NCBI GenBank assembly: GCA_023249645.1
Contig: JAHFCF010000008.1
Location: 7,257-71,256, forward strand
Reading direction: 5' to 3'
Source of the DNA: Elusimicrobiota bacterium
GTDB taxonomy: Bacteria > Elusimicrobiota > Elusimicrobia > UBA1565 > UBA9628
Length of the DNA: 64,000 bases
The notes under the pieces were generated by a model. The model was not told the origin of the DNA. It saw only the letters and a list, made by a program, of their open reading frames with translations, and made no database searches. Positions 1-32,881 of this stretch are shown one piece after another. The position numbers and the translations under genes were made by a program. Every line of letters begins with the position of its first letter. Position 1 is the first letter of the stretch.

Positions 1-1095
1 GGCGGGGTCATGAAGACGGCTTTCGACGGCGTTCCCATCCACATCCCCTCTGAGTATATGTTTGCTTTCGGCAAGACGACCTACGCCAACTGCGACAATG
101 TCTCGGGACACTCCTTGGACCGGGTGCGCAGCGAGGCTGAGCGGCTTATTAAGGAATACCCGGACCGCTTGACCATGGCCTCGACCGGCGGCCCGGTCAG
201 CGGCAACGACGAGGCGGACAAGAAGGGCTGGCAGCACAACACCAAGAAGCTCGAGGACTGCGGCATCATGGGCATCGAGTACAGCCTTTCCTGCCCGCAG
301 GGCGGCGACGGGACCAAGGGCGACATCGTGTCCCAGGACGCTGAGCTCACGGCCAAGATCATCGGCTGGGTCCTGGAGGCGGGAGATCCGGAAATCCCCA
401 AGCTCTTCAAGCTCACGGCGGCCGTGACCTCGATCTATCCCATCATCACGGCCATCAAGGAAGTCTTTGCGCGCTACCCCAAGGCTAAAGCCGGGGTGAC
501 CTTGGCCAATACTTTCCCGACGCTGGCGTTCCGAAAGGGCCGGAAAGCGGCCTGGGATGAGGGAGTTGTCGTCGGCATGAGCGGCGAAGGGGTCATTCCG
601 ATCTCGAATCTGACCCTGGCTAATGTGTCGCGCCTGGGCGTGGTCGTCTCGGGCAACGGCGGGCCCATGGACTACCAGTCTGCGGCCCATTTCCTGGCGC
701 TGGGCGCTCGGACCGTGCAGTTCTGCACCGTCGCGATGAAGTATGGCGTCGGGATCATCGGCGAGTTGCACTCGGGCTTGAGCTATCTCATGGAAGATCG
801 CGGGATCAAATCCATGGACGAGCTCATCGGCCGGGCTTTGCCGGATCCCGTCCGAGGATTCATGGAGCTCTCCGCGACCAAGAAGATCTCGGCCGTGCGC
901 GAGGAGCTCTGCCTGCACTGCGGCAACTGCTCGCGCTGTCCCTATCTGGCCATCACCCTCAACGACAAGACGGTGCCCCAGACGGATCCGGAGAAGTGCG
1001 TGGGCTGTTCCATCTGCAGCCAGAAGTGTTTTTCAGGCGCTCTCTATATGCGCGAGCGCACCAAAAAGGAGCTCGCAGCTCTTAAGGAGGATTAG
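1..1095 (+). CDS. Dihydroorotate/dihydropyrimidine dehydrogenase-family flavoprotein with C-terminal 2x[4Fe-4S] ferredoxin domain (PreA-like); 5' end runs off the window
   Basis: ORF 10..1095 is open to the window edge. 'EYSLSCPQGG' is the DHODH-family active-site loop. The C-terminus has two CxxCxxCxxxCP ferredoxin motifs. About 45 aa of the N-terminus are missing relative to PreA-like proteins. Confidence 0.7.
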   Translation, partial: GGVMKTAFDGVPIHIPSEYMFAFGKTTYANCDNVSGHSLDRVRSEAERLIKEYPDRLTMASTGGPVSGNDEADKKGWQHNTKKLEDCGIMGIEYSLSCPQGGDGTKGDIVSQDAELTAKIIGWVLEAGDPEIPKLFKLTAAVTSIYPIITAIKEVFARYPKAKAGVTLANTFPTLAFRKGRKAAWDEGVVVGMSGEGVIPISNLTLANVSRLGVVVSGNGGPMDYQSAAHFLALGARTVQFCTVAMKYGVGIIGELHSGLSYLMEDRGIKSMDELIGRALPDPVRGFMELSATKKISAVREELCLHCGNCSRCPYLAITLNDKTVPQTDPEKCVGCSICSQKCFSGALYMRERTKKELAALKED

Positions 1096-1144
1096 AGGGT
1101 CAGGCATTGACTTTTGACTCAGTCAAAAGTCAATGCCTGACCCT
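1096..1144. repeat. 49-bp perfect palindrome (AGGGTCAGGCATTGACTTTTGACT c AGTCAAAAGTCAATGCCTGACCCT) filling the gap between the PreA-like gene and ssnA; candidate operator or attenuator
   Basis: Perfect 24-bp arms read directly. It ends 8 nt before the ssnA ATG. The half-site recurs near 21808 and, degenerate, near 8301. Confidence 0.8.
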
Positions 1145-5763: not shown

Positions 5764-5801
5764 TTATCCACAAACTCGCTGCGCAGCGAGTTTGTGGATA
5801 A
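5764..5801. promoter_or_regulatory. 38-bp perfect inverted repeat carrying two DnaA-box consensus 9-mers (TTATCCACA ... TGTGGATAA)
   Basis: TTATCCACAAACTCGCTGCG|CAGCGAGTTTGTGGATAA read directly. It lies between the xdh stop (5833) and the aconitase-family start (5692). Confidence 0.6.
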
Positions 5802-8316: not shown

Positions 8317-11300
8317 TCAGTGATTGTCATCGAAGGGCAGCTTGTTCTGGCCGATCCGGAAAAGCACGAAGAAAGCGACATTGATCGCGGCGATCACGTA
8401 CCAGGTGAAGGGGAAAGCATGGGACTCTCCCCAGATCAGGGGGACCTGCTTGGCCGTGCCGTAGGTGGCCAGGGCGATGCTCGTGGCGATGTTGACGAAG
8501 GCTCCTCGGAATCCGGAGAAGTACTGCACCATGTTTGGCATCAATCTCTTCAGCGTGGCGGTGAAGTTCGCGCTGACCGTGTGCGTCGTGGGGTTGTGCA
8601 CCATGCCGAAGATGGCCAGGCTCAAGTAGAGCGACCACGGCGCCAAGTGGAAGAGGATCGGCAAAAAGCCCAGCACCAAGAGGGCCTTAGACTCAGCGCC
8701 CAGCCAATCGCGCTGTTTGATCTTCGGCGTCAGGTTGTGGATGAAGATGTAAAGCGGGATCATCACGGCGAAGACGACGGCCAGGCTGATCAAAGCGTGC
8801 GCCGACAGCAGGGCGGCCAACGACAGCTTGATCCCGGGTCCGAGGATCAGGCTTCTGGGCAGCAACAGGAGGCCCACCCAGGCGGCCATGCTCAAGGCTC
8901 CGAACCATTTCATGGCTTGTTTAAAGGTGGTCATGTGAGGGGAGATCATACCCGTGCCGGTCGGCATCTGTCCCATGTAAAAAGAGGCGAGGAGTTTTCC
9001 GAACAATTCACTCGACCCGGCGCCTTTGCCCGCCGTCTCAGTGGCCAGCACGCCCAGCACCGAGTTGCGCATGGGCAGTTCCATGAAGGCGCATATCATG
9101 ATGAAGGCCAGGCCCCATTTGAGCATGGGGTTCTTGGCGATGACCTGCGTGTAGGAGGGAGATTTCAGCAGCAGCCAGGCCGCCACGATCACGGAGGGGA
9201 GCGCGGACCTCGTCAGGAATGTGACGGGCCCAGTCCAAAGCCAAGAAACGGATAGCGGTGAAAAATGGAAGACCGGATAGGCGAGTGGAGGCAGGGGACA
9301 GAGGAAGAGGACCGCTAATCCGGCGAAGAGCAGCCCATAGCTTGCCCATCGCAGCCAGGTCCGGCGCGGGGTCGCCTTTAATATCGCATAGAGCTGCCGG
9401 CCCGCTTTATGGAGCTGTACCGCCGTGAACAGGACACTGTTCCAGAGGCGCGCGACGGGGGCGAGGATAGGCGGAGTCCTCGATGCGCGCACGTGTTTGA
9501 GGAATTCAGCGTTGACCCGAGCGTTGTCCACCTGCGGAGCGCCGACCTTGCGGCCTATGCCCGCCGGAATGGTCCGCCAGAGGACCAGCACCGGGAGCAT
9601 CTGCCCGGCGCCGGCGATGAGGAATGTCTTCATGTATCCCCAGCCGTCGACATGCTTTCCCAGCCATAGCCCCGACCCGACCGTGACGAGGATCGTGGCG
9701 ATCCGGATCATTGCTTCGTTGGAGCGCAGATCGTGCTCGTTGGTCGCCAGATCGGCCATCATGGCGAAGTCCAAAACGAACAGAAGCGCGAACTGTAGGG
9801 TGCTCAGCGCGGTCAGGACGAGCAGGGACGGGAAGCTCAGCATGGCGTACCCGATGGCCGCGGCGGTGATGAAGCTGATGACTGCCCGGAGGGCGAAATT
9901 AAAGAGGACGGCCGATTTTTTGTTTTGGATCCCGTCCATGATCTTGCCCACGGCCAGGGCCAGGCCGATGGCGATGATGCCTCCCAGCACGCCCAAGGTG
10001 AACATGCTCGCGGTGCCCACGGCCTTGATGATCATGGGGGTGTAGGCCAGGGTGATGAGCGAGCCGGCGACCATGGAGAAAAAGCGTGAGCCGAAGAGCC
10101 CCATGACCGCCGTTTTCTTCTGCTGGACGGACAAGTCGCTTTCATAAGTCAGCAGCGGGATGATCGAGGTCTTCTTCTGTTCGCTCGCCTTTATCTTTTC
10201 CCGGACAGAGACCAGATGTCCAGAGATGGACCGGACGCCCTGCAGGCCCATGTCGTCGAGCTTGTTGTCATACGCGACGATCTCCAGAGCGATGCGCGCT
10301 TCGGTCGTGCCGAGCGCGTCGAGACCGGCCATGGCCACCATGCGGTCGTTCTTGGGCTTGCCGCGGTCCGCGGCGATGGCTTGGAACTCCGCCACGAGGC
10401 CCGCGTCTGTGGCGCTTTTCTCAAGTTCAGCGCGGGCTTGAGGGGATCCGAAGGCGTCGAGGATCCTGACGGAGGCGACCCTGTCGGCCAGTACTTGCTG
10501 TCTGTCCCGGATGTTGGCGCCGAGCTGCGCGATCGCGGGAGAGACTTCCTGGACTGCCGGAGCCGCTTCGATGGCCCGGATGAAGGCCCGCAGCGCCCGC
10601 AGGGCCGTGACCCGGTCGGCGATCGGCTGGCGCGCGTTGCGGGCGACCTGGCCTAAGTCGGCGGAGAGGGGCGCGTCTTGAGCGAGGCGGACCAGGAACG
10701 ATTGGGCTTCTTCGCCGCGCGATTCGATGATCCGGATGGCCGCGATCCGATCCGCGATATTTTTTTGCTGGTTGCGCGCGATGCCGGCGAGGTCTTCAGT
10801 CGATAGATCGGAGAGCTTTGGCGCTTTGTTCGTGCCGAGCGCGTTGAGGCTGGCCATGGCCGCCATCCGGTCATTCTGGGGCCTGGCGCGATCCGCGGCA
10901 AGGACTTGAAGTGCCGCCACGAAGTCCGCATCACGAGCGCTTTTCTTGAGTTCTACGCGGGCTTGCGGGGATCCGAACGCTTGGAGGATCCTGACGGAGG
11001 AGACCCTATCGGCCGGGGGGTGTCGTTCGTCTCGGGTGTTGGCGCCGAGCTGCGAGATCGCCCAGGCGACTTCCTTGGCTGCGGGAGCTTCGTCCAGGGC
11101 CCGGGCGAGAGCCCTGAGGGCCCGCAGGGCCGCGATCCTGTCGGCGATCGGCAGGCGTGTGTCGCGGGCTGTATGGCCCAGGTCGACGGCCAAGGTCGCG
11201 TTTTGAGCCAGCCGGAGCAAAGACGGCCGGGCATCTTTTCCTTGCGACTCCACGAGCCGCAGGGCCTCGATCCGGTCTGTGATCTTTTTCTTCTGGTCAC

Positions 11301-11583
11301 GTGCGATGCCGGTCAGATCTTCCGTCGACAGAGGGGCTGCGCCGGTGATATCCGCGGCTTGCTGCGCAGGGTCTCCCTGTGGGAACAGAGGCGCGCCGGC
11401 ATCCCGCTTTCCTGGTTCAAGATCGAAATGCAGGAAGCCGAGATTCTTGGGACCCTGGGAGGCGTCCCCGGGAGGAGGAGTGCTTTTGGGAAGCGCTGCC
11501 CACGCTTGCTGGCCTGGGGAGAGGAGGATCAGGGTCGCGCAGAGCGCCCCTGCCAGAATGCGCTGCCAAAGCCGGATCCTCAC
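8317..11583 (-). CDS. Fusion protein: signal peptide + two tandem ~175-190-aa HEAT-like (PBS-lyase type) repeat units + C-terminal polytopic membrane domain (>=12 TM helices, MFS/nucleotide-transporter-like)
   Basis: N-terminal Sec signal (…PGQQAWA|A). Repeated 'ADRIAALRALRA / ADRVSSVRILQAFGSPQARVELKKSA / NDRMAAMASLNALG' motifs. The C-terminal about 600 aa is strongly hydrophobic with many helices. It is one uninterrupted frame. Confidence 0.6.
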   Translation of the reverse strand: MRIRLWQRILAGALCATLILLSPGQQAWAALPKSTPPPGDASQGPKNLGFLHFDLEPGKRDAGAPLFPQGDPAQQAADITGAAPLSTEDLTGIARDQKKKITDRIEALRLVESQGKDARPSLLRLAQNATLAVDLGHTARDTRLPIADRIAALRALRALARALDEAPAAKEVAWAISQLGANTRDERHPPADRVSSVRILQAFGSPQARVELKKSARDADFVAALQVLAADRARPQNDRMAAMASLNALGTNKAPKLSDLSTEDLAGIARNQQKNIADRIAAIRIIESRGEEAQSFLVRLAQDAPLSADLGQVARNARQPIADRVTALRALRAFIRAIEAAPAVQEVSPAIAQLGANIRDRQQVLADRVASVRILDAFGSPQARAELEKSATDAGLVAEFQAIAADRGKPKNDRMVAMAGLDALGTTEARIALEIVAYDNKLDDMGLQGVRSISGHLVSVREKIKASEQKKTSIIPLLTYESDLSVQQKKTAVMGLFGSRFFSMVAGSLITLAYTPMIIKAVGTASMFTLGVLGGIIAIGLALAVGKIMDGIQNKKSAVLFNFALRAVISFITAAAIGYAMLSFPSLLVLTALSTLQFALLFVLDFAMMADLATNEHDLRSNEAMIRIATILVTVGSGLWLGKHVDGWGYMKTFLIAGAGQMLPVLVLWRTIPAGIGRKVGAPQVDNARVNAEFLKHVRASRTPPILAPVARLWNSVLFTAVQLHKAGRQLYAILKATPRRTWLRWASYGLLFAGLAVLFLCPLPPLAYPVFHFSPLSVSWLWTGPVTFLTRSALPSVIVAAWLLLKSPSYTQVIAKNPMLKWGLAFIMICAFMELPMRNSVLGVLATETAGKGAGSSELFGKLLASFYMGQMPTGTGMISPHMTTFKQAMKWFGALSMAAWVGLLLLPRSLILGPGIKLSLAALLSAHALISLAVVFAVMIPLYIFIHNLTPKIKQRDWLGAESKALLVLGFLPILFHLAPWSLYLSLAIFGMVHNPTTHTVSANFTATLKRLMPNMVQYFSGFRGAFVNIATSIALATYGTAKQVPLIWGESHAFPFTWYVIAAINVAFFVLFRIGQNKLPFDDNH
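10190..11340 (-). repeat. Tandem direct DNA repeat (~527-bp period, 2 copies) inside the HEAT-repeat coding region
   Basis: Near-identical 45-50-mers occur at about 10442 and 10968 ('ggggatccgaaggcgtcgaggatcctgacggagg…'). The encoded protein units are about 60% identical. Confidence 0.6.
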
Positions 11584-11689
11584 GAATTCATTCTAACATG
11601 AGTGAAAAAATAACCTATAGGTCTTTGGGCTTAAAAAGGACCGGCAAAAGGCCCAGGCTGAAATAGGTCTATCGACCTATATTTTTTGG

Positions 11690-11742
11690 GGCCTTGCAAA
11701 AAAGACAGACATGTACTATAATATGTACATATTGGGGGATCC
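11690..11742 (+). promoter_or_regulatory. Putative promoter/operator of the phd-yoeB operon: TATAAT flanked by ATGTAC direct repeats, forming the perfect palindrome ATATGTACATAT
   Basis: Sequence 'acatgtacTATAATatgtacatattggggg' lies immediately 5' of the Phd ATG. Toxin-antitoxin operons are typically autoregulated at such palindromes. Confidence 0.45.
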
Positions 11743-11997
11743 ATGAGAAACATCACCGCCACGGGCGCACGCAATGATCTCTTCAACGTCATCAAGCATT
11801 CCATCAAGACGCATCAGCCTTGGCATATCACGTCCCGCGCCGGCGAGGCGGTCCTTTTGTCCTTGGAGGATTTCGAGGATCTCATGGAGACCCTGGAATT
11901 GCTCTCCACGCCGGGGGTTTTAGCGGGCGTCCGCAAGGCCAGAAAGGAGATCAGGGAAGGGAAGACCTACTCCTTCGCGCAAGTCTTCGGTCATTGA
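11743..11997 (+). CDS. Type II antitoxin, Phd/YefM family
   Basis: 84 aa. 'ARNDLFNVIKHS…HQPWHITSRAGEAVLLSLEDFEDLMETLELLS' matches the YefM fold. A YoeB toxin gene follows 3 bp later. Confidence 0.8.
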   Translation: MRNITATGARNDLFNVIKHSIKTHQPWHITSRAGEAVLLSLEDFEDLMETLELLSTPGVLAGVRKARKEIREGKTYSFAQVFGH

Positions 11998-12000
11998 ACC

Positions 12001-12255
12001 GTGCCTTACGAGATCCTCATCACGCGCCAGGCCCGCAAAGACGTCGAGATGCTCACTCCTAAGTTAAGGAACAAGTTGCGGGAACTTTTGATCCACGTCA
12101 TCTCTCAGGATCCCTATGAAGGCAAGAAGCTCTTGGGGGACCTGGCCGGGAGTTATTCTTACCGGTTAAGCTTGAAGGACCGCTTGATCTACAGCATCGA
12201 CGAGAGCAAGAAAACCGTTTACCTTGAGCGTGCCCGGACTCATTACGGGGACTAA
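12001..12255 (+). CDS. yoeB: Type II toxin, Txe/YoeB family mRNA interferase
   Basis: 84 aa, GTG start. C-terminal 'YSYRLSLKDRLIYSIDESKKTVYLERARTHY' is the YoeB signature. Confidence 0.8.
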   Translation: MPYEILITRQARKDVEMLTPKLRNKLRELLIHVISQDPYEGKKLLGDLAGSYSYRLSLKDRLIYSIDESKKTVYLERARTHYGD

Positions 12256-15084: not shown

Positions 15085-15100
15085 AAAGGATTATAGGCCT

Positions 15101-15185
15101 TTTGGACTAGAAAGGTCTAGGTCCTAATTCCCTGAAAAATTGCCCAAAGGACCCAGGCGGGTTTTTAGGCCATGGGGTATAATAA
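15101..15185 (+). promoter_or_regulatory. Conserved promoter cassette copy A (inverted-repeat operator-like GGACTAGAAAGGTCTAGGTCC + 'ccctgaaaaattgccc' + TATAAT)
   Basis: It is about 80% identical over about 95 bp to 17590..17701. It ends with 'ggtataataaatgcagATG'. Confidence 0.6.
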
Positions 15186-15917
15186 ATGCAGATGCAGGGA
15201 GATATGAACATGAACAAGAATATCTGGCCGCTTCTCGCCTTGGGCGTCGCGCTGGTTTCCGTCGGCGCGAACAGCGCCTGGGCCTTGGAGGATCTCCCTG
15301 CCGGAGGCCTCTCGCAGATCACTGGGAACGAAAAAACGTCCGAGGACGTTAAAGCGGCTGGCGACGTCAAGGCGTGGGATGTGGGTGCGGCTCTCAAAGC
15401 CAGGTTTTCCAATTTCAATGCGCGAGTTGTCCAGGCGAATCAGCAGGCTCGTCCGTGGTGTTCGTATGGACCATGCATGACGAATGGGATGGCTGCTCGC
15501 TCCGACACGCAGTCTGCTGCTCCGGACACAAAAAACTGTTGGAGGTATTGGGGAGCATGCCCGGCCGTGAATGAGCCGGCGGCAGTTCAAGCCGTCGTTC
15601 CTTTGACGCCGACGGACTTCGGGGCCGGCCATTATGCACCGTATGAAACGAGCGCCTCGCTGAAAAACAGCGCTCCTTCCGCCGGCGATCAGGCAGCCCA
15701 GACCGCCAACAACTGTTGGCGGCATTGGGGAGGGTGCGCGGCTCTGAATCTGTCGGTCGCTCCCAAAGCCGAGCTCGCGCCGAAAACAGACGCTCAGCCT
15801 GCATCAGAAACAGCCATCAGGCCTGCGCCGGAAGTCGCCCTTTGGTCTAACCGAAATTCTCATGCCATGAGGGGCTGCGCGGGTTCCGAGAGGGACTGCG
15901 ATCGGATCTGGCGGTAG
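15186..15917 (+). CDS. Secreted hypothetical protein with duplicated Cys/Trp motif N-C-W-R-[YH]-W-G-[AG]-C
   Basis: It has a signal peptide (…ANSAWA|LED). Motifs are 'KNCWRYWGACPAVNE' and 'NNCWRHWGGCAALNL', plus 'CSYGPCM'. No family was recognised. Confidence 0.5.
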   Translation: MQMQGDMNMNKNIWPLLALGVALVSVGANSAWALEDLPAGGLSQITGNEKTSEDVKAAGDVKAWDVGAALKARFSNFNARVVQANQQARPWCSYGPCMTNGMAARSDTQSAAPDTKNCWRYWGACPAVNEPAAVQAVVPLTPTDFGAGHYAPYETSASLKNSAPSAGDQAAQTANNCWRHWGGCAALNLSVAPKAELAPKTDAQPASETAIRPAPEVALWSNRNSHAMRGCAGSERDCDRIWR

Positions 15918-15920
15918 GGC

Positions 15921-17276
15921 GTGTCTTCGCCGCGCCCTCGATGGACGTTAAGCTTCCCCTGCGCGTGTCTGCTCCTGCCCTTCTCTGTTCCGTCCGCCTG
16001 GGCCCTGATCGGCAACGGGCACGACAGCTTCTTCCAGGAAGTTGAAGCGGACCTGAGGTCGCTGCGCGACGAAGCCGCCGGCCTTTCTCAAAGCGTCCAG
16101 GTCTTCCAGAGCGACATCGTCCCTTGGACCCTGCGGATCACCGCCGAGTTCGCCGATGCTCCACGCAACCTCCAGCTGCTGACGAGCGGCCAGGCAGCGG
16201 AGTGGCGTTCGGTCGGCAATCCCAACGATCCTGCTGCCTTCTGCAAGCAGGAGTTCTTGGACATCCTCTGGCACGGTTTTACCGATGCTTCCGGGCACGT
16301 TCACCGGAGCATCCATTACTATCTGGGCAAGGCCCGGTTCAGCGGTCTTTTGTCTTTGGTTCCGCTCAAGGGCACCTATTGGCCCGTGGCCGTCTGGAAG
16401 GTCCCGGATCCCTTCGACATCACCCGCGCCCAGGCTGAGGCGAAGGGTTTTGAGCAGGGGCTTCGTGAGCGTGAGGACTATTGGGCCCGGGAGAAAGCCG
16501 TCTACAATCGCTACCTGCAGGCGTTCGATCAGATGTTGTCCGTAGACCCTTCTTTGCCGTTGGTCACGGATGAATTCGGCCGTCAGCATCCGGCTTCGCT
16601 TCTCGTCTGGAGGGATCGAGAGAGGGGCCGGAGCGTCGAGGCCGAGGCTGCGGCCAAGGATTCTTTGGCGAGGCTCGATGCCGAGGCTGAAATCATCAAC
16701 CAAGAGATCTCGGCGGATGCTCCGAAGCTCCCTCTGATCTCGACATTGGCGCCGGGCCGATTAAAGGGCGTCCTGCCGATATATGCCGCTCAGTTGAGTC
16801 GACTCGAGACCCAGAGCAGGGGTTTGCTGCGAGCCGAGCTCAGGCCCCTGCTGGCTGCGTTCATTGCCGCTGACTACTATTTCATCCGATGGGCGCAAGC
16901 CGACGCTGATCTGGCGCAGATCGATCAAGCCATCCCTATCCTGGAGAGGGCTCGGGCTGGCTTCTTGGACAGCATGAAAATGTTCGATGAGGTGGCCTCG
17001 GACATCCAGGCGGATCGGATCTTTGTGGCCGCAGAGGAACACAGCGGAGAAGAGATACAGGCCATGTTCCATCGCAAGAAGGTCCTGATCCAAGACACCA
17101 TCCTGCCGCGCTTGAGGGAAGCCAAGGCTCTTCTGGGGAGCGAGACGAGCCCGGGCACGCTGCTCTGGCTCCTGCAGCAGCGCCTCTTGGCTGTGGATCC
17201 GAAAGGCGCCAGCGGGCCCTACTACGCCATTTTCTCGAATCAAGTGGCCTTGAGGGACCTGGTCGATCGGTTTTAG
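15921..17276 (+). CDS. Secreted hypothetical protein (GNPNDP-motif family); translationally coupled to the upstream Cys-motif protein
   Basis: 451 aa, GTG start 4 bp after the upstream stop. It has a signal peptide (…SAWA|LIG). It shares 'W[RS].GNPNDP[AS]A' and C-terminal 'LIQ…PRL' blocks with the 40670..41674 protein. Confidence 0.5.
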   Translation: MSSPRPRWTLSFPCACLLLPFSVPSAWALIGNGHDSFFQEVEADLRSLRDEAAGLSQSVQVFQSDIVPWTLRITAEFADAPRNLQLLTSGQAAEWRSVGNPNDPAAFCKQEFLDILWHGFTDASGHVHRSIHYYLGKARFSGLLSLVPLKGTYWPVAVWKVPDPFDITRAQAEAKGFEQGLREREDYWAREKAVYNRYLQAFDQMLSVDPSLPLVTDEFGRQHPASLLVWRDRERGRSVEAEAAAKDSLARLDAEAEIINQEISADAPKLPLISTLAPGRLKGVLPIYAAQLSRLETQSRGLLRAELRPLLAAFIAADYYFIRWAQADADLAQIDQAIPILERARAGFLDSMKMFDEVASDIQADRIFVAAEEHSGEEIQAMFHRKKVLIQDTILPRLREAKALLGSETSPGTLLWLLQQRLLAVDPKGASGPYYAIFSNQVALRDLVDRF

Positions 17277-17320
17277 CCGGAGGTAAGAGCTCGCTCCAGT
17301 GAAGTTTCGACCAGCGCAAG

Positions 17321-17510
17321 GCGACTTATCCACCGACTCTTCGCGTGAAGAGCCGGCGGGCGAACTTGGTGCGCACCAAGTCAATCAACTGGCGGTCACA
17401 GTTGCCCAATAGACAAAAGTGTAACCCATGTGCCCGGTCTGCTTTGTACCTATGTGGCCGGTCTGTACCCAGTTGATCAACTGTTGCCGGCAACAGTTGG
17501 CCGAAAAATC
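17321..17510. repeat. Palindromic intergenic repeat element, copy X (DnaA-box-like TTATCCACC + hairpins CTCTTCGCGTGAAGAG, TTGGTGCGCACCAA, GTTGCCGGCAAC)
   Basis: Core 'cttggtgcgcaccaagt…aactg…cagt.gcc' is shared with copies near 38250 and 42955. This copy carries an internal insert with direct repeats 'atgtg[cg]ccggtctg'. Confidence 0.6.
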
Positions 17511-17589
17511 GCATTGAATTGATGAGTAAGCGTTTCAGCGCGGGCTGAGAACTTTATTTGGGCGAGCTGTTACAGCCGAAGTGCCCTCT

Positions 17590-17701
17590 AGGTCTTTGGA
17601 CCTAGAAAGGCCCAGGTCCAAATTCCCTGAAAAATTGCCCGATAGGCCCAGGCGCTTTTCCCATCCCCAGGCTATAATAAGGAAAGATGTAAAGGGAGGA
17701 T
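17590..17701 (+). promoter_or_regulatory. Conserved promoter cassette copy B (GGACCTAGAAAGGCCCAGGTCC inverted repeat + 'ccctgaaaaattgccc' + TATAAT)
   Basis: Paralogous to 15101..15185. It ends with 'ggctataataaggaaagatgtaaagggaggatATG' (SD GGAGG). Confidence 0.6.
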
Positions 17702-18205
17702 ATGACCATGAATAAGTCAACCTGGAAGTGCGCGGGACCTGTTTTTGTGTTGGCCATCGTGCTGATCTCCGCGGGCGCCGATCGCGCGTGGGCCTTGACG
17801 GACGTGTGCACTGAAAACTGCGACGTCACCCTGGAAGCCGTGAAACAGCTTGGAAGAGATCTGGCCGCTTGGAATGCTCAGCGGAAGATGCGCCAGGCTG
17901 TGGAGAAGCGGGAGGCCAGCAAGATCAATGATGAAGTCTTCGGTCCCCAGGCTCGATTTGAGAAGATCCTCCAGTGGGCGGAAGGCATTTCAAAGAAGGA
18001 TATGATCGGCCCCGTTGAACTCCAGCGCAAGGTGGTGGTCAGCGCTTCTGAGACCGTGGTCGTCTATACGGGGCGCGCGGTGACGAAGAAGAAAAACTGC
18101 ACGGTGACTCTCAGGAACTACTATCCGAGCAATCTGGCTCTCGATTCTATCGGTTGCGGCGGCAAGGCCGAGAAGACCTTTGTCGCTCCGTTCCAAAGCC
18201 GGTAG
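17702..18205 (+). CDS. Small secreted hypothetical protein
   Basis: 167 aa with a signal peptide (…ADRAWA|LTD) and 4 Cys. It is driven by promoter cassette B. No family was recognised. Confidence 0.5.
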   Translation: MTMNKSTWKCAGPVFVLAIVLISAGADRAWALTDVCTENCDVTLEAVKQLGRDLAAWNAQRKMRQAVEKREASKINDEVFGPQARFEKILQWAEGISKKDMIGPVELQRKVVVSASETVVVYTGRAVTKKKNCTVTLRNYYPSNLALDSIGCGGKAEKTFVAPFQSR

Positions 18206-19565: not shown

Positions 19566-20378
19566 CTACGGCATCCAGGCCACGATGCGGCACATGGAGC
19601 TTTCCAGCTCGATGCCGCGCAGGGGGAAGCACCCGATCCAGGCGCGCTTGTTCGAGAGCTTCTCGATGTCGCCGCCGATGTTCTCGGCGTGCACGATCTC
19701 CTTGGGAAAGAGTTTGATGTGCATGACCTGGTAGTACTCTTCCTGGGGGAACATCTCATCCCAGCCCTTGCCATAGTTGGCTTTGAGCTTCTTCTCCGCT
19801 TCCACGAAGGCCTTGGGATGCCAGCCGCGGATGATGGTGTTCATGGGATGATCGGCACTCCCGCAGTCGACCCCGATCCATTTGAACTTCATGTCCAAGC
19901 ACCACTTGTGGAAGGCCGGTCCCGGCCCCGGGTGCTTGACGAAATAGCGCAGTTCGTCGGACTGCTTCTGGTCCCAGGCGTAGCGATGATAGCCCGTGTT
20001 GATGATGAGGATGTCGCCCTTCTTGATGTCCACCTTGCTCTTGAGGAGGTCGGGCTCGTAGAGGTCGTAATCGCCGAGCTCCTTCGAGAGATCGACGACA
20101 GCGCCGGGGCCCACCCACTCGTTCATGGGAACCTGGCCGATGGAGCGGCCGCTGGCGTGGAAGTGGATCTCGCCGTCCATGTGTGTGCCCACGTGGTTGG
20201 AGGTCGTGATGACCTGGCCGTTGGCTCCCTGGCCCATGTGCGCGCCCGCGATGCGCTTGAAGTACTGCACGGAGAGCGGGATGTAGCTCGGCCACGGCGG
20301 GGTATGCACGCTCAGGCGCTGGGTTAAGTCATACATCTTGACCTTGCCCATCAGATCGAGGAACTGTTCGGTTTTCAT
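19566..20378 (-). CDS. Cyclase-family protein (kynurenine formamidase-like fold)
   Basis: 270 aa. 'HVGTHMDGEIHF' is the HxGTHxDxPxH cyclase-family signature. Confidence 0.75.
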   Translation of the reverse strand: MKTEQFLDLMGKVKMYDLTQRLSVHTPPWPSYIPLSVQYFKRIAGAHMGQGANGQVITTSNHVGTHMDGEIHFHASGRSIGQVPMNEWVGPGAVVDLSKELGDYDLYEPDLLKSKVDIKKGDILIINTGYHRYAWDQKQSDELRYFVKHPGPGPAFHKWCLDMKFKWIGVDCGSADHPMNTIIRGWHPKAFVEAEKKLKANYGKGWDEMFPQEEYYQVMHIKLFPKEIVHAENIGGDIEKLSNKRAWIGCFPLRGIELESSMCRIVAWMP

Positions 20379-21787
20379 GACTTGCCTCCGAGTTTTTTTG
20401 CCAAGCCGACGACGGCCTTCTGGAACGGCTCTGCGGGCGCGCTCAAGATGCCCGCGCCCACCTGTCCGATGCCAGGCTCTTTATGGGCCACGCCTGTGTC
20501 GATGAGGGGGAAGATGCCTTTTTCCACGACTTTTCTGGCGTCGATGCCTGTGGGACTGCCCCTGAAATCCAAAGCCGGGATCTGGTAGGCGGTGTTCTCC
20601 GCGATCGTGATCTCGTACATCTGCCGCGTGTAGTCAAGCGAGTCCGAGGCGCTGCCTCCCACGAACTGGACGATGGCCGGCGAGGCCGCAATCGAGAAGC
20701 CGCCCAGACCGTTGGTCTCCGTTATGGCGGAATCCCCGATGTCCGGGTTGGCATCCGCCTTGGTGAAGCCCGGGAAGTAGAGCGCGTCGGGCACTGGAGC
20801 CGGACCAGTGAACCATTCAGAACCAGTTCCCGAGAGTTGTATGCCGAAGTCGGTGCCGTTGCGAGCCATGACCGTGACGAACGAGCTCCCTTTGATATCG
20901 CGCGCCGCATCTAATGAGACTTTGCTCGCTGGCATGGAGAGATTGAGGAAGAAATGGTCGTTGCCATTGATGAATTCGAGCACCTGTGCCGCTGTCTCCG
21001 GGTCCGGGGCTGTGCGGACGATGGCCGGCGCGATGGCACGATAGAAAAGCGAGGTGGCCGCGCGGTTGCGGTTGTGCACCTCGTCTCCCATGTGCAGAGC
21101 CTGGGCGATGATGTTTTTTAAGTCGATCTTGCCGATCTTGGCCACGGCTTTCTTGAGCGTGGGATAAAGAACAACTTCCATCCATTTAAGCTTTTGAATG
21201 ACCGTTGGGCCATAAGCGCCGTAGCGCAGGACCTTGCCCAGACCCTCGTTCATGGTACAGAAGCCGAGATTGCCGTTCTCTTCGTTCTTGAGGACAAAGA
21301 CAGGCATGGAAGCGGAGATGATGCCTGCCATGGGACCCACGGCTGAGTGTTCGTGGCAGGGAGAAAAATCGATCTTTCCTGAAGCGGCCAGCTTGGAGGC
21401 ATCTTTGGGAGTCTTGGCCAGTCCTTCATACATCAGTGCCGCCATGATGCCGCCGCGCATGGGACCGCACATCCGATCCCAGGCGATGGGAGGCCCGGCG
21501 TGGAGGATGAGGTTCTTCTTCATCCCCGGGATGACGTCGAGAGCCTTGTCCAGGCCGATCAAGACCGGCTTGGCGGCCAAGACCTTGGCCGCGGCTTTGG
21601 CATTGGCCTTGTTTATTTCTTCGGATTTGGCTTGAAGGATCTTGCGGGAGGCTTCATCGATGGCCAGCGGCGGCCGCCAGTCCACATGCACGGACTTGGT
21701 CCCGCATTGCTCAAGACTCTTCTGGAAAGACTCAAGGCCCAGATTGACGACCTTGAGCTCGCTTTGAAACAGGTCCTTCACGCTCAC
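20375..21787 (-). CDS. DUF1116-family protein (YlbE-like; partner of FdrA/YlbF in oxamate/oxalurate-type clusters)
   Basis: 470 aa, GTG start. Assigned by size, composition and synteny with fdrA and the DUF2877 gene. Only family-level similarity was recognised. Confidence 0.6.
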   Translation of the reverse strand: MSVKDLFQSELKVVNLGLESFQKSLEQCGTKSVHVDWRPPLAIDEASRKILQAKSEEINKANAKAAAKVLAAKPVLIGLDKALDVIPGMKKNLILHAGPPIAWDRMCGPMRGGIMAALMYEGLAKTPKDASKLAASGKIDFSPCHEHSAVGPMAGIISASMPVFVLKNEENGNLGFCTMNEGLGKVLRYGAYGPTVIQKLKWMEVVLYPTLKKAVAKIGKIDLKNIIAQALHMGDEVHNRNRAATSLFYRAIAPAIVRTAPDPETAAQVLEFINGNDHFFLNLSMPASKVSLDAARDIKGSSFVTVMARNGTDFGIQLSGTGSEWFTGPAPVPDALYFPGFTKADANPDIGDSAITETNGLGGFSIAASPAIVQFVGGSASDSLDYTRQMYEITIAENTAYQIPALDFRGSPTGIDARKVVEKGIFPLIDTGVAHKEPGIGQVGAGILSAPAEPFQKAVVGLAKKLGGKS

Positions 21788-21807
21788 AGGGGAGATTATA
21801 ACAAATG

Positions 21808-21833
21808 GGGTCAGGCATTGACTTTTGACTGAG
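21808..21833. promoter_or_regulatory. Half-site copy of the ssnA-upstream palindrome (GGGTCAGGCATTGACTTTTGACTGAG), 21-46 nt upstream of the ylbE-like start
   Basis: It is a 23/23 match to the left arm of 1096..1144. A related 'gggtcagtgattgtcat' lies in the xdh 5' region at about 8301..8325. Confidence 0.6.
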
Positions 21834-21921: not shown

Positions 21922-22176
21922 ATGAATAATGCGATCAAGACCGCCATCAGCCTTCCCGCCGGTGTTTTCCGCCAGGCCGAGGTTCTGCGCCATCAAGCGG
22001 GGCTGTCCCGCAGTGCGCTTTACACCGAGGCGCTCAAGGCGTATTTCGAGTTTCAGCTCGTCCGCGAGAAAGAGGCGCGCTACGGCGCCGGCTATGAGGG
22101 GAAACCAGAAGACTTAAGCGTCATCTCCGCGGCAACGGCTGCGGGGGCCGCGAGCCTCAAGAAGGAGGATTGGTAA
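21922..22176 (+). CDS. Ribbon-helix-helix antitoxin (CopG/MazE-like)
   Basis: 84 aa. 'KTAISLPAGVFRQAEVLRHQAGLSRSALYTEALKAYF' is a beta-strand followed by two helices (RHH). It abuts a MazF gene and is preceded by an AT-rich promoter region. Confidence 0.7.
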   Translation: MNNAIKTAISLPAGVFRQAEVLRHQAGLSRSALYTEALKAYFEFQLVREKEARYGAGYEGKPEDLSVISAATAAGAASLKKEDW

Positions 22177-22488
22177 ATGCGTCGCGGAGAGGTCTGGTGG
22201 GCGCAGCTTCCGGCGCCGGCCGGGAGGCGGCCGGTGCTGCTCCTGTCTCGCGACAAAGCGATTTTGGTGCGCCAGTCCGTCACCGTGGCGCAGGTTACCC
22301 GGACGGTTCGTGAAATACCCACGGAGGTCCGTCTGGGGCGGGAGGAGGGCATGCCCAAGGCCTGCGTGGTCAACACGGATGTGATTTTCACCATTCCAAA
22401 GGCCCTGCTTTTGAACCGTATCTGCCGGCTATCGGTGGGACGACTCGACGAGGTCGGCGAGGCGATTAAGTTCGCTTTAGACCTTTAA
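22177..22488 (+). CDS. MazF/PemK-family endoribonuclease toxin
   Basis: 103 aa. 'RGEVWWAQL…RPVLLLS…VTVAQVT…KACVVNTDVIFTIPKALL…IGRLSV…' is the classic PemK/MazF pattern. Confidence 0.8.
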   Translation: MRRGEVWWAQLPAPAGRRPVLLLSRDKAILVRQSVTVAQVTRTVREIPTEVRLGREEGMPKACVVNTDVIFTIPKALLLNRICRLSVGRLDEVGEAIKFALDL

Positions 22489-28560: not shown

Positions 28561-29331
28561 ATGGCCATCCCTTCTTTCGAGCTTCGAGAGTCCTTTCAGC
28601 TGGCTTTCCTGCGCCATCTGCACGCCCGGCTATCCCCGAGCCGCGCCTACGCGGTCAAGGGGGGGATCTGCCTGCGTTTCTTCCATCGCTCTCCCCGTCT
28701 CTCTCAGGACATGGACCTCGACATCGTGCCCGATTTTCCAGTTTCCACGCTCCAAAACGCAGTGGATTCCATCCTGGAGGGACGGGCCTTCGCCGCATCG
28801 CTCATCGGTCAAGGGATCACGAGGCTTGAGGTGCGCAAGCCCAAGCAGACTCAGACAACGCAGCGCTGGAAGATATCCCTCTTTATGAGCGTGGGCGAGC
28901 CTCTGCCCACCAAGATCGAATTCAGCCGGCGCCAGGAGGACATCCGCACTGCCGTGGCCGCTCCGGACGCTGAACTTCTGCGTCGCTATCGGATGACGCC
29001 CTTTGCCGCCCGCTTCTACGACGCGACGACTATGGCGGCCCAAAAGGTCGGCGCGCTTGCCGCGGCCTCGCGCTATGCCGCGCGCGATCTTTTCGACATC
29101 CACCATCTGCTGCGCGTCGTTCTGGTCAAGCCGGTCGAGGTCGCTGCTTTGGTCGAATCGAAGATCGTGGAAAATGCAGCTGACAAGGTCACGGCCTTCT
29201 CTTATGGCGACTTCAAGGAGCAGGTCCTGCCTTATCTTTCGGGAGAGATGATGGACCTTTACCGCGACGCGGCGGCTTTTGAACAGCAGAAAGCCGAAGT
29301 CGAAGAAGACTTGCTGGAGATGTTGCGATGA
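28561..29331 (+). CDS. AbiEii/AbiGii-family nucleotidyltransferase toxin (type IV toxin-antitoxin)
   Basis: 256 aa. 'ESFQLAFLRHL…VKGGICLRFFHRSPRLSQDMDLD' matches the DUF1814/AbiEii N-terminal signature. Confidence 0.7.
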   Translation: MAIPSFELRESFQLAFLRHLHARLSPSRAYAVKGGICLRFFHRSPRLSQDMDLDIVPDFPVSTLQNAVDSILEGRAFAASLIGQGITRLEVRKPKQTQTTQRWKISLFMSVGEPLPTKIEFSRRQEDIRTAVAAPDAELLRRYRMTPFAARFYDATTMAAQKVGALAAASRYAARDLFDIHHLLRVVLVKPVEVAALVESKIVENAADKVTAFSYGDFKEQVLPYLSGEMMDLYRDAAAFEQQKAEVEEDLLEMLR

Positions 29332-29936
29332 GCGCCGCCGGTCTGGTCAAGCTCATGCAGAAGCACTCCCTGCGGGTCTTTACGACTACGGATATGGCCG
29401 CGATCTCGGGCCTTTCGCCAGCTACGGCTAGCAAGGCCTTGGCACGGCTTTGCGCCCAGGACTTGGCCGTGCGGCTCAAGAAGGGCGTGTGGGTCAATAA
29501 GTTGGCCGCGGATCTGAATCCCTACGAGGCCGTGCCGTATCTGCGGATACCATGGCCTGCTTATGTGTCTCTGTACAGCGTTCTGGCGGATTGCGGCGTG
29601 GTCGAGGATATCCCGCAAGTGATTTATGGGGTCTCGGCGGCGCCGCCAAAATTCTATCGGACGCCTCTGGGAGAATTCCATATTCATCACCTGCCGGACC
29701 GGCTCATCTGGGGCTACGAGGTCCGGCATCAAGGACAGGCCCGATATCTTGCCGCTGAGCCGGAGAAAGCATTCCTCGACTTGGTCTATCTGGCGCTCAT
29801 CCCTAGGTGTCCGCTGAGTTTCCCCGTCAAACGCGGTAGGAAATGGGCGCTGGATGCGCAAAAACTTCGTTCCTACGCCAAGCGGTTTGGATTTCCTCCG
29901 CTCAGCTCCTGGCTCGAAGAAAACCGCCTCTTATAA
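29328..29936 (+). CDS. AbiEi-like antitoxin (N-terminal wHTH + AbiEi C-domain)
   Basis: 202 aa with a wHTH 'MAAISGLSPATASKALARLCAQDLAVRLKKGVWV'. It shares an ATGA overlap with the upstream AbiEii gene. The gene order is reversed relative to canonical abiEi-abiEii. Confidence 0.6.
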   Translation: MSAAGLVKLMQKHSLRVFTTTDMAAISGLSPATASKALARLCAQDLAVRLKKGVWVNKLAADLNPYEAVPYLRIPWPAYVSLYSVLADCGVVEDIPQVIYGVSAAPPKFYRTPLGEFHIHHLPDRLIWGYEVRHQGQARYLAAEPEKAFLDLVYLALIPRCPLSFPVKRGRKWALDAQKLRSYAKRFGFPPLSSWLEENRLL

Positions 29937-29940
29937 AAAT

Positions 29941-31368
29941 TCAGCGCCCTTCCTGCCACTGAGGAGTCTGGTCCGCGTTGTATTCGCGCCGGGCGACCTT
30001 CGAGACTTCTGGCCTGAGATAATCGTAGACCGCCTGCAGGTCCGATCCCTTCTCCTTGAGGCCCTTGAGGAAAAAATAGGTGAAGAGTCCGTGGCCCTTG
30101 TCCTGATAGCTGGACGAGATCTGATCGCCGGCCGCTGCCGTGATGACGGTCAGGTTCTGCGGCACATTGTTCGCGGCCATGGTGACCAAGGGCCGCGCTC
30201 CCCGGGCGATGACCGAGCGGCCTCCGGCGCCTGAAAAGCACGAGTCCATGGCCACGACGACCTTCTTGGCCGGCAGCTTGCCGAGATCGCGATAGAGCTT
30301 GGCGATCGAATATCCGGTCTGCTCGATGTAGGTCGGGTCGGCGTCGAAGGGGACGAGATACGCCTCGCCTGTCTTGGGGTTGGGGGCTCCATGGCCCGAG
30401 TAGTAGATGTAGATCGTGTCGCCCTCTTCGACCCTGTTGGGCAGCCAGCGTTCGAAGTACTTTTCGAAGTCGCTCTTCGCCGCCTGATCGTTGATCAGGA
30501 CCGCGACGTTCTCCTCCGGCACGCCGAGCACGCGCTCGTAGTACTTGGCGGCCAGGCGCGCGTCAGCGGCCGCGAAGTCGGCGTGCGGCAGGGCTTGGCG
30601 ATAGTTCTCGATCCCTATGACGATGGCGTGCGTGTGAGGCTGAGATATCGATGCGGGGGGAAGCGCGTCGATCTCGCTCGACACGGCGCTTGCCGGAAGG
30701 TTTGCCACCACGGGCGCGCGCTGCGGACGTGTCGGTGAGCGCAGGGCCTGCGCGTACTGGATGAACTTGGGGCCGTTGGTCAGGCTGAGCAGGACGTTGT
30801 TGATCGCTGTCGTAAAGGCCTCTTGCAGGCCAGTGCTGCGAGACCAGCCTTCCTGCGTGAAGGAGGCTTCGGCCAGGGCATGCTGGCCGGAACTGTCCAG
30901 GAACTTGGCAGGGACGCTGACAGTGTAGCGCCATTCGTCGGGAGGGACGAAGATGGGGAAGATCTCCCAGAAGGCGATGAATTGGAGGACGCAGACGCTC
31001 GATGCATCGAGTGTGGGAGGGGAGAATTCGATGAGGGCGTCGTACTGGCCCAAGGCCGAGGCCTTGTCCGCGACCAGATCGACTTCCTTGAATCTCGACT
31101 TGACCATCTCATAGGCCAGGCGGATGTATTCCTGATCGTAGGGGAGCGTCACGATGGTCTGGCCGATGATGCAGCGCGTCGGGACCACCACCGGCGGCAT
31201 GGCCGAGGTTTCCGGCATCACGAGACCGATCCTGAGGGGAATGGGTTGTGCATTGGTTATAGGAACGTTGTAGTTCGGATCGAATCTCACCTGGTGCTGC
31301 AGGGTGCAGGCTGCCAAGCTGCTGATGACGAGGCAGGCGAGGAGGGGCTTGAGGAATGATTTTTTCAT
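29941..31368 (-). CDS. Lipoprotein caspase-family protease (peptidase C14 / orthocaspase), paralog 1
   Basis: Start at 'MKKSFLKPLLACLVISSLAAC' (lipobox LAAC). The C-terminal domain carries the His-Cys dyad: 'HAIVIGIENY', 'YYSGHGAP', 'DSCFSGAGG'. The N-terminal about 240 aa is of unknown fold. Confidence 0.8.
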   Translation of the reverse strand: MKKSFLKPLLACLVISSLAACTLQHQVRFDPNYNVPITNAQPIPLRIGLVMPETSAMPPVVVPTRCIIGQTIVTLPYDQEYIRLAYEMVKSRFKEVDLVADKASALGQYDALIEFSPPTLDASSVCVLQFIAFWEIFPIFVPPDEWRYTVSVPAKFLDSSGQHALAEASFTQEGWSRSTGLQEAFTTAINNVLLSLTNGPKFIQYAQALRSPTRPQRAPVVANLPASAVSSEIDALPPASISQPHTHAIVIGIENYRQALPHADFAAADARLAAKYYERVLGVPEENVAVLINDQAAKSDFEKYFERWLPNRVEEGDTIYIYYSGHGAPNPKTGEAYLVPFDADPTYIEQTGYSIAKLYRDLGKLPAKKVVVAMDSCFSGAGGRSVIARGARPLVTMAANNVPQNLTVITAAAGDQISSSYQDKGHGLFTYFFLKGLKEKGSDLQAVYDYLRPEVSKVARREYNADQTPQWQEGR

Positions 31369-31372
31369 GGTT

Positions 31373-32881
31373 TCACCGTCCTTCCTGCCATTGGGGGGTC
31401 TGGTCCGCGTTGTATTCGCGTCGCGCGACCTTCGAAACCTCGGGCTTGAGATAATCATAGACCGCTTGCAGGTTCGGGCCTTTTTCCTTAAGACCCTTTA
31501 GGAAGAAGTAGGTGAAGAGTCCGTGGCCCTTGTCATCATAGCTCGTGGAGATCTGGTCGCCGGCAGCGGCCGTGAGCACCGTGAGGTTTTCGGGGACATC
31601 GGATGTCTTGAGTGTGACCAGGGGCCGCGCGCCCCGGGCGATGACCGAGCGGCCGCCGGCGCCGGAGAAGCACGAGTCCATGGCCACGACGACCTTCTTG
31701 GCCGGCAGCTTGCTGAGATCTCGATAGAGCTTGGCGATCGGATAGCCGGTCTGCTCGATGTAGGTCGGGTCGGCGTCATAGGGGACGAGATAAGCCTCGC
31801 CGGTCTTGGGATTCGGCGCGCCGTGTCCCGAGTAGTAGATGTAGACTGTGTCGCCCGCCTCCACGCGGTTGGGCAGCCAGCGCTCAAAATACTTCTCGAA
31901 GTCGCTTTTGGCGGCCTTGTCGTTGATAAGGAGCGCGACGTTCTCCTCCGGCACGCCGAGCACTCGCTTGTAGTACTTCGCGGCTAGTCGCGCGTCGGCA
32001 GCCGCGAAGTCGGCGCTCGGCAATTTCTCGCGGTAGTTCTCAACGCCGATGACGATGGCGTGGGAATGCGCGTTGGATGCCGAGGCGGAGGGAAGCTCGT
32101 CGATGTCGCTGCGCCGGGAGGCTGTCGTGGGCGCTGGCGGGGCAGCGGGCATCTGCGGCGAGGATTCAGCGGCGGGTTCTTCGGGAGCTGACATCGGTCC
32201 GGAGGGCGTCTGTTTTCTTTTCTTCGACCTTCGAGATGGAGTGGTCCTGGCCGTCGGCGCGGCAGCGACGATCTGTTGGCGCGAGGGGGCGCGGCCTTCG
32301 ATCAGCGCGACGAAGTCCTGGGATTCGAGGGTCGGCCCCATTCCCTGGACCGCGTTGGCGAGCGCTGTATTGATGGCTTGGCTGAAGCACGCATCCGGCC
32401 GGCCGAAGCCGGGGCGCAGGCCATTGGCCGTGCCCGTGAAGGTCCAGGAGAGCACGTTCTTTTGCCGGCGGTCCTTGATGGCCAAGGCGAAGGTGACCTT
32501 CCCGATGATCTTGTCATCAAGGCCTTCGGAACCGAGGTATCTGACGGACGCCTGCGTGAGCGAGGTTGCGAAGATCGCCTCGGCTTGAGCCGGATCCGTG
32601 GTCGTGGGCAGCTGCAGGCGGCCCAATTCTGTGACCAGGGCTTCCTGGAGGACCTCGGACATCGGACGATCCGCCTGCCAGAGCCCTTGATAAGTGGAGA
32701 TGCCTCCCGATAGATCGGTGGCAGCGTCCACGTAGACGATCGGCCGGCGCGGACCTTGGAAAGCGCGTGGGTTGGTTGTGGGATCGTACTTGAGGGTGAG
32801 GATGTCTGCGCAGCCGGAGAGCGTGCTGAGAAGCAGCGCGAGACTGGAAAATCTGAGGAGACGGCGCTCCATGTTCATCAT
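31373..32881 (-). CDS. Lipoprotein caspase-family protease (peptidase C14), paralog 2
   Basis: Lipobox 'LSTLSGC'. The caspase domain is about 90% identical to paralog 1 ('YYSGHGAP','DSCFSGAGG'). The N-terminal region is unrelated and has a Pro/Ala/Ser-rich linker. It lies 4 bp upstream of paralog 1. Confidence 0.8.
   Translation of the reverse strand: MMNMERRLLRFSSLALLLSTLSGCADILTLKYDPTTNPRAFQGPRRPIVYVDAATDLSGGISTYQGLWQADRPMSEVLQEALVTELGRLQLPTTTDPAQAEAIFATSLTQASVRYLGSEGLDDKIIGKVTFALAIKDRRQKNVLSWTFTGTANGLRPGFGRPDACFSQAINTALANAVQGMGPTLESQDFVALIEGRAPSRQQIVAAAPTARTTPSRRSKKRKQTPSGPMSAPEEPAAESSPQMPAAPPAPTTASRRSDIDELPSASASNAHSHAIVIGVENYREKLPSADFAAADARLAAKYYKRVLGVPEENVALLINDKAAKSDFEKYFERWLPNRVEAGDTVYIYYSGHGAPNPKTGEAYLVPYDADPTYIEQTGYPIAKLYRDLSKLPAKKVVVAMDSCFSGAGGRSVIARGARPLVTLKTSDVPENLTVLTAAAGDQISTSYDDKGHGLFTYFFLKGLKEKGPNLQAVYDYLKPEVSKVARREYNADQTPQWQEGR

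Follow-up and report, generated by a model that had tools for sequence, protein, structure and literature searches.

Correia elements of Neisseria are MITEs of 100–155 bp that occur in hundreds of copies and are accompanied by a TA duplication, and the transcribed Correia hairpin can be cleaved by RNase III, with changed expression of the neighbouring genes. Between malE and malF of E. coli, an intercistronic REP hairpin stabilises the upstream mRNA, and in genes 38 and 25 of phage T4 a hairpin brings a distant Shine-Dalgarno sequence close to the start codon. Arrays of several short boxes serve small repressors as operators, as with the heptads of the ribbon-helix-helix omega repressor and the tandem MetJ boxes; natural operators are degenerate and are conserved at orthologous sites. 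GGGGTC is a common start of the inverted repeats of the Tn3 family, whose transposons often carry toxin-antitoxin pairs and for which one-ended transposition is possible. REPINs are doublets of REP units in inverted orientation, and REP singlets are found alongside them (PMC3116915).

The sequence analysed here, referred to as the window, is a 64,000-nt stretch of a contig from an Elusimicrobiota bacterium, and it contains a palindrome before ssnA (site A) and a half-copy of it before allG (site B). A reductive pathway of uric-acid breakdown, described only recently, includes XdhD, YgfK and SsnA, and in E. coli YgfK and SsnA carry out consecutive steps of it (PMC12507026). The named homologues that best match SsnA and AllG all come from Elusimicrobiota MAGs. 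The positions of the principal features are collected in Table 1.

Table 1. Features at the ygfK/preA-like to ssnA junction and before allG (positions refer to the window).
Feature	Position	Strand	Remarks
821-aa YgfK/PreA-like Fe-S flavoprotein gene, 3' part	10..1095	+	Cut by window start; stop TAG 1093-1095
AAGGAGG ribosome-binding sequence	1084..1090	+	In last codons of upstream gene; only one available to ssnA
49-nt perfect palindrome (site A)	1096..1144	.	Arms 1096-1119 and 1121-1144, centre C at 1120
ssnA, putative aminohydrolase SsnA, 439 aa	1153..2472	+	NF005540 at 556 bits (cut-off 444)
allG/ylbE (DUF1116, oxamate carbamoyltransferase subunit AllG)	20375..21787	-	First gene of allG-cyclase-xdhFAD-xdh2Fe2S
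Putative extended -10 box TGTTATAAT	21795..21803	-	7 nt upstream of allG GTG; kept in L015, L016, L017
Single 24-nt unit (site B), AGTCAAAAGTCAATGCCTGACCCC read towards allG	21807..21830	-	23/24 match to palindrome arms
mazE (ribbon-helix-helix-like, read from sequence)	21922-22176	+	
mazF	22177-22488	+	

As the original prediction had stated, the 49 bp upstream of ssnA form a perfect palindrome: the two arms of 24 nt are 100% complementary and 1 nt apart, which is far beyond chance. The palindrome fills the gap between the PreA-like gene and ssnA, with its 5' end directly abutting the TAG stop of the upstream gene and its 3' end 8 nt before the ssnA ATG at 1153. Three further assemblies, from the same strain or near strains (L001–L003), carry it with the same flanks, so site A is not an assembly artefact; one of these, L002, is 1.2% divergent from the window strain, which is too close to inform on constraint on the palindrome. 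The half-site predicted before the allG (ylbE) operon was also recovered as 23 exact bases. Its one mismatch to the arms is at the outermost base, and the copy ends 19–20 nt upstream of the allG GTG (21787). A search of the 64-kb window for the 24-mer, allowing up to 3 mismatches, returned 3 sites against 0.00 expected, namely the two arms and 21807–21830. The third site claimed, at xdh, did not hold up. The stretch at 8314–8328 matches at only 12 of 15 positions, a level reached about twice per window by chance, and instead of lying in the 5' region of xdh it lies 40–54 nt upstream of the ATG (8274), where it overlaps the TGA stop of an upstream 1088-aa ORF.

Site A is a head-to-head doublet of a 24-nt unit, which reads 5'-AGTCAAAAGTCAATGCCTGACCC(C/T)-3' towards the downstream gene. 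Each unit carries three tetramer boxes, GTCA, a second GTCA 7 nt on and TGAC 9 nt further on, the last two of which make up a GTCA-N5-TGAC dyad. In the site A doublet the TGAC/GTCA boxes start at 1099, 1108, 1115, 1122, 1129 and 1138 (spacings of 9, 7, 7, 7 and 9), and its centre reads TTGACTT TTGACTC AGTCAAA AGTCAAT. GTCA-N5-TGAC was found three times in the window (0.63 expected), with no instance outside the unit copies, and in 124 kb of relatives' loci there was none besides a third copy of the unit in L011. The boundaries of the unit are sharp: the likeness among the site A, site B and L011 copies stops exactly at the 24-nt ends, and the flanks are unrelated.

The doublet is predicted to fold stably both as RNA (−43.6 kcal/mol, z = −9.1) and as DNA (−27.6 kcal/mol, z = −12). 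The single units at allG and in L011 do not fold; a single unit has only a 4-bp internal stem (GTCA/TGAC; −1.8 kcal/mol, z = −0.4) and contains no GTAG. The flanks of site A (...GATTAG / AATTCA...) hold no direct repeat in any register, so no target-site duplication was seen there. The promoter scan called no sigma-70-like promoter at site A. A sigma-70 promoter built on the TTGACT boxes was considered and rejected, as there is no −10 box at the right spacing, and on our own reading of the sequence the spacing is also wrong for the GG-N10-GC of a sigma-54 promoter. No T-run follows the palindrome on either strand, and the scan made no terminator call. An integron attC site is an imperfect palindrome with RYYYAAC / GTTRRRY cores and extrahelical bases; here the palindrome is perfect and has no GTTRRRY core. 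At the gathering score of Rfam, the window contains two tRNAs only, and the palindrome gave only sub-threshold matches to generic miRNA-precursor hairpins. The palindrome therefore belongs to no Rfam family, and it is neither a terminator nor an attC site nor a repeat of the Tn3 type.

When compared with the described systems, the unit works most like a REPIN or a small MITE, although several of the features that define these families were not seen for it. As in a REPIN, the palindrome consists of two short inverted units that can pair into a long hairpin as RNA or as single-stranded DNA; singlets occur elsewhere, the copies are nearly identical, and the place is extragenic and intercistronic, directly after a stop codon. 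Unlike in a REPIN, the two units are 1 nt apart with no spacer, the unit has its 4-bp stem only and no 5' GTAG, no RAYT (Y1 transposase) gene was found among the window ORFs scanned up to 52261, the copies occupy 2 loci in 64 kb, and all of them are just upstream of the start codons of one pathway. With the Correia elements the palindrome shares the build of a short element made from terminal inverted repeats and inserted beside genes, but it measures 49 bp, has no duplication and was seen in few copies. Of the inverted repeats typical of MITE or insertion-sequence ends, site A has the repeats and lacks the target-site duplication, and of the Tn3 inverted repeat (about 38 bp, GGGG...TAAG, 5-bp duplication) just the opening GGGG(TC) is seen, and this at site B. 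The ssnA stem-loop resembles malE-malF and the T4 genes in standing between cistrons, any effect on expression being predicted from sequence and folding alone, and it resembles T4 genes 38 and 25 in that the ribosome-binding sequence is predicted to reach the AUG only across the folded hairpin. The boxes of the unit, direct and inverted with 7-bp spacing and set over a promoter or a ribosome-binding region, recall the omega and MetJ operators; unlike those operators, the unit occurs in identical copies and lacks conservation in relatives.

The ygfK-ssnA junction was compared with that of relatives. The closest relatives (ENA ERZ1426817 and ERZ1426829) were compared by gene coordinates, not DNA, and in the closest of all (ERZ1426817, 91% SsnA identity) 6 nt separate the ygfK-like gene from ssnA. 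In L011 (from ENA ERZ27245846, the genome that also holds L016) and L012 (both 85% SsnA) the gap is 0 nt, the junction reads AAGGAGGCTTAAATG, and the AAGGAGG of L011 is 5 nt before the ssnA ATG. L013 (81% SsnA) has a 52-nt gap with no palindrome. L010 (86% SsnA) has a 94-nt gap with a different hairpin, GGGGACACAATACTTA...TAAGTATCGTGTCCCC, and a new AGGAGGG beside the ATG; the old AAGGAGG, kept in the window, is AAGGAAG in L010, which has this ribosome-binding site of its own. Since the junctions of the closest relatives measure 0–6 nt, the palindrome is a recent insertion, about 51 nt long and specific to this lineage, in a junction that was once tightly coupled, and the different hairpin in L010 argues that the junction repeatedly acquires insertions. 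The L010 insertion (9822–9873, up to 9904) consists of a 16-bp-arm hairpin, then a tandem CCCCAATTAGGA x2, then the new AGGAGGG. Its outer stem GGGGACA...TGTCCCC followed by AATT bears a faint likeness to the ends of the window palindrome (GGGnCA...TGnCCC ends, then AATT); this was too weak to call kinship.

In the ssnA transcript, a hairpin would begin right after the UAG and leave 8 nt to the AUG, a stretch that lacks a ribosome-binding sequence. The predicted RNA fold even pairs GGAUU of the old ribosome-binding site with AAUUC. The AAGGAGG would be 5 nt before the hairpin foot, and folding of the hairpin would bring it to about 13 nt from the AUG. Because no ribosome-binding sequence stands between the hairpin and the AUG, translation of ssnA would proceed by the upstream AAGGAGG, by coupling to termination, or by both. 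We infer that ssnA may be translatable only via ribosomes from the upstream gene or via AAGGAGG across the hairpin foot. The 23-bp perfect duplex would also be a plausible natural target of RNase III.

At site B, the sequence on the allG side is shared with relatives. The spacing of TGTTATAAT to the allG start codon, which is GTG in the window, is 7–8 nt in four lineages (the window, 21785–21803; L015, 5980–6003; L016; and L017), and this conservation suggests an extended −10 promoter with a leaderless or nearly leaderless allG transcript. Homology to the relatives on this side resumes at GTTATAAT; the unit is 4 nt upstream of TGTTATAAT and spans about −19 to −42 of the putative allG promoter. 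It would have replaced the native sequence over that part of an extended −10, leaderless-type promoter. Beyond the unit, the region upstream of allG has no significant similarity to L015–L017. Homology of the half-site to the sequence upstream of allG in relatives (TCAATGCC...CCCATTT in L015) was rejected as not significant, with 276 of 2000 shuffles doing as well, and a decayed second arm from 21831 onwards was rejected because its alignment is no better than that of shuffles.

The opposite strand on the other side of site B carries mazE and mazF, beyond which come allF and allH. L015, L016 and a third relative carry a hybrid kinase/receiver gene of ~640 aa on the opposite strand between allF and allG, and this gene is missing from the window lineage and its closest relatives; the two closest have only 50 nt (ERZ1426817) and 31 nt before allG. 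The hybrid histidine kinase/receiver genes at L015 3911–5824 and L016 7838–9772 are divergent from allG and have no Pfam DNA-binding domain. Between allF and allG, mazEF is a lineage-specific insertion, with the 24-nt unit as its edge on the allG side. The other edge is at the AllF C-terminus, whose last ~10 residues are unlike those of all relatives exactly where mazF overlaps. A relative of MazF at 84% identity is on a short contig, which ends before the position of the unit could show. The unit is unlikely to be an operator of MazE: about 70 nt separate it from the mazE −10 box downstream, and close to mazE there are no TGAC boxes.

A 24-mer scan of all fetched relatives found the third copy at L011 6352–6375, TGTCAAATGTCAAGACCTGACCCC, which matches the unit at 20 of 24 positions; by our own calculation, about 8e-4 such matches are expected by chance in the DNA scanned. 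The copy precedes the ADH gene, the first of an ADH-ygfK-ssnA operon, at a distance of 2 nt from the AAGGAG and 11 nt from the ATG, and its four substitutions are all outside the GTCA/GTCA/TGAC boxes. The unit is absent upstream of ADH in L010 and L012, where the homology to L011 resumes at GGAG. The C-rich end of the unit is close to the resumed homology in both cases, 4 nt at site B (−10 box) and 2 nt in L011 (SD), and the other side of the unit is lineage-specific DNA at both. The unit has the same orientation at ssnA, allG and the L011 ADH gene, 8–19 nt before the ssnA and allG starts. In all, it was counted at 2 loci in the 64-kb window and at 1 locus in 124 kb of relatives' DNA.

Searches were also made beyond these loci. 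Exact 20-mer scans gave one match in 596 Gb of genomes (L005) and four loci in JGI metagenomes (L006–L009), and the matches in L005 (3247–3269) and L006 (911–934), which are in other phyla, extend to 22–23 nt. These were rejected as members of the family, as the numbers of matches equal chance and the frames that were read (L005, L006, L007 and L009) are a coding coincidence: they encode G/C-Q-A-L-T-F-D in frame, in LamG-like domains or a Y1-like pseudogene. The Y1-like fragment beside the L005 match was set aside as a link to a transposase for the same reason. When very large collections are scanned for exact words, common peptide motifs turn up among the matches, which are to be read with caution. 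A degenerate pattern of the unit had no match in IMG/VR, and the unit had none in plasmid and phage records. Among the window ORFs scanned up to 52261 there was no transposase, RAYT, resolvase or recombinase, and in the same range neither Pfam nor NCBIfam identified a DNA-binding regulator beside site A or site B; the unannotated neighbours look secreted.

Other repeats and elements were recorded in the window. A 38-nt perfect palindrome, TTATCCACAAACTCGCTGCGCAGCGAGTTTGTGGATAA, occupies 5764–5801 in the gap between the aconitase-like and xdh Mo-subunit genes, and both of its ends are consensus DnaA-box 9-mers (TTATCCACA). The palindrome core TTGGTGCGCACCAA occurs in two intergenic regions, at 17364–17381 and at 38291–38316, the latter just upstream of an XRE-type HTH gene (38418–38771); this core looks more like a classical operator than the ssnA palindrome does. 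The long intergenic region 17276–17702, which holds the first of these cores, also contains a 22-nt perfect palindrome, CAACTGTTGCCGGCAACAGTTG, at 17478–17499. A dispersed intergenic module of ~100 nt is found at 15094–15194 and 17589–17689 (74% identity), with a partial third copy at 11618–11657. It contains CTAGGTC...GACCTAG, AAAGGCCCAGG and a TATAAT box, and precedes two genes for paralogous secreted proteins as well as phd, whose promoter has ATGTAC repeats around TATAAT (11710–11730). Three toxin-antitoxin pairs are present, Phd/YoeB-ParE-like (11743–12255), MazEF (21922–22488) and AbiEii/AbiEi (28561–29936); the Phd/YoeB and MazEF pairs are insertions in the purine cluster, on the strand opposite to it, and each overlaps a host gene (OPT and allF, respectively) 3' end to 3' end. 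The 1088-aa ORF at 8317–11583 (minus strand) has no Pfam or NCBIfam match and a membrane-like C-terminus. It contains internal direct repeats (10296–10595 and 10821–11120, 77%) and 27-nt repeats with alternating 135/390-nt spacing and a 525-nt period. Direct repeats at 29940–30481 and 31372–31913, about 540 nt in total, are 83–89% identical and 1432 nt apart, and cover the 3' part, the 5' end and the region just upstream of a caspase-domain gene (29941–31458, minus strand). At 58991–59090 there is an AT-rich imperfect palindrome of ~100 nt, 78% complementary, in a window that is otherwise 61.5% GC.

The explanation we lean towards, tentatively and at somewhat less than an even chance, is that the feature is a small non-autonomous copied repeat of the REPIN/MITE kind, whose effects on expression are incidental or secondarily used. 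The 24-nt unit would have been copied recently by a process at the DNA level, leaving a hairpin-forming doublet at ssnA and singlets at allG and in a related genome, and would not be an inherited operator. Pointing to a copied element are the perfect symmetry of the arms, the 23/24 identity, the sharp boundaries, the absence from the orthologous sites of relatives, the position where lineage-specific DNA borders shared sequence, and a gene cluster that in this lineage is full of insertions: mazEF, phd-yoeB (11743–12255) and a 3-kb secreted-protein block with the ~100-nt repeated upstream module. Against such a repeat are the low count (two loci in the 64-kb window, one in the relatives' 124 kb), the lack of a RAYT or other transposase among the window ORFs scanned to 52261, the lack of a target-site duplication, and a unit with only a 4-bp internal stem and no GTAG. 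The three loci are also before the starts of one pathway and in one orientation, for which we roughly estimate a random chance of a few per cent, and the box-sparing substitutions in L011 fit recognition by a protein, be it a regulator or a transposase. A copied repeat and a copied operator are not mutually exclusive readings. The main rival reading, which seems rather unlikely to us, is that the unit is a copied operator, at which a purine/oxalurate regulator binds one module at allG and two at ssnA and represses both. The module would be the GTCA-N5-TGAC dyad with an extra GTCA 7 nt upstream, to which ssnA adds a central TGAC-N3-GTCA dyad. The original prediction of a shared operator stands in so far as the same 23/24 unit is found in the same orientation before ssnA and allG, and fails at xdh, where the third site is at chance level. 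Orientation is the same at all loci, 8–19 nt before the ssnA and allG starts and 11 nt before the L011 ADH gene; the unit abuts a −10 box or a ribosome-binding site and at allG covers about −19 to −42 of the conserved putative promoter, a place for a repressor. The regular 9-7-7-7-9 box spacing, L011 substitutions confined to positions outside the boxes and in the N5 spacer, and the absence of GTCA-N5-TGAC elsewhere in the window and in 124 kb of relatives favour protein binding as well, and rewiring is plausible because the lineage lost the kinase/receiver gene beside allG. However, the motif is not kept at orthologous positions in the closest relatives, site A is inside an operon and without a recognisable promoter, no DNA-binding regulator gene was found near either site, and the 23/24 identity and the arm symmetry extend to positions that a regulator would not constrain. 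With identity at such unconstrained positions, a copying event is needed even if the unit is an operator. An operator is therefore possible but is not the best-supported reading of these sequences. The wider claim of a purine/oxalurate regulon gains from the third copy in L011 and from the unit over the putative allG promoter, and loses by the absence at orthologous positions and because no regulator gene was found nearby; a conserved regulon is not supported. A bolder form, in which a portable 24-bp box array was physically copied before catabolic genes, once as a doublet, and rewired the anaerobic purine/oxalurate cluster of a lineage that had lost its kinase/receiver gene beside allG, we consider distinctly unlikely; if true, a regulon would grow by copy-and-paste of a binding site and not by point mutation.

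The association with mazEF raises the possibility that the unit is the end sequence, or scar, of an element that delivered mazEF, that is, a terminal inverted repeat with GGGG at its outer end. Site B would be a one-ended remnant that retains mazEF, and site A two ends back to back without cargo. The mazEF insertion does have the unit as its outermost part, the G-rich end turned towards host DNA, and both G-rich ends of site A face outwards. We regard this origin as quite improbable, for no second end was found at the other edge of mazEF (up to 8 mismatches), no direct repeat flanks site A, the ORFs scanned to 52261 yielded no transposase or resolvase, plasmid and phage records gave no match, there is no Tn3-type 38-bp repeat ending in TAAG, and the L011 copy is not beside a toxin-antitoxin pair. 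A very improbable alternative is that only the RNA structure is selected, as an intercistronic hairpin that protects the upstream message or sets the protein ratio, with the allG half-copy as a by-product. The predicted hairpin is very stable (−43.6 kcal/mol), a second, unrelated hairpin is in the same junction of L010, and the upstream AAGGAGG kept in the window is weakened to AAGGAAG in L010, where AGGAGGG is new. The half-copies at allG and in L011, however, do not fold and yet match the arms at 23/24 and 20/24, the hairpin is absent from the closest relative, no Rfam family matches, and without a U-tract the structure is not a terminator.

Should the feature prove to be a small palindromic repeat that is mobile, the class would have an example in Elusimicrobiota; a description of such a repeat in this phylum was not found in the literature, which was searched without that aim. 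A mobile repeat at this site would also show cleanly, in a natural setting, how an insertion can break a coupled junction and make ssnA rely on a ribosome-binding site on the far side of a hairpin. If the feature is a copied operator, a regulon would have been extended by a duplicated binding module. In either case, identity this high between two "operators" speaks more strongly for recent copying than for shared regulation.
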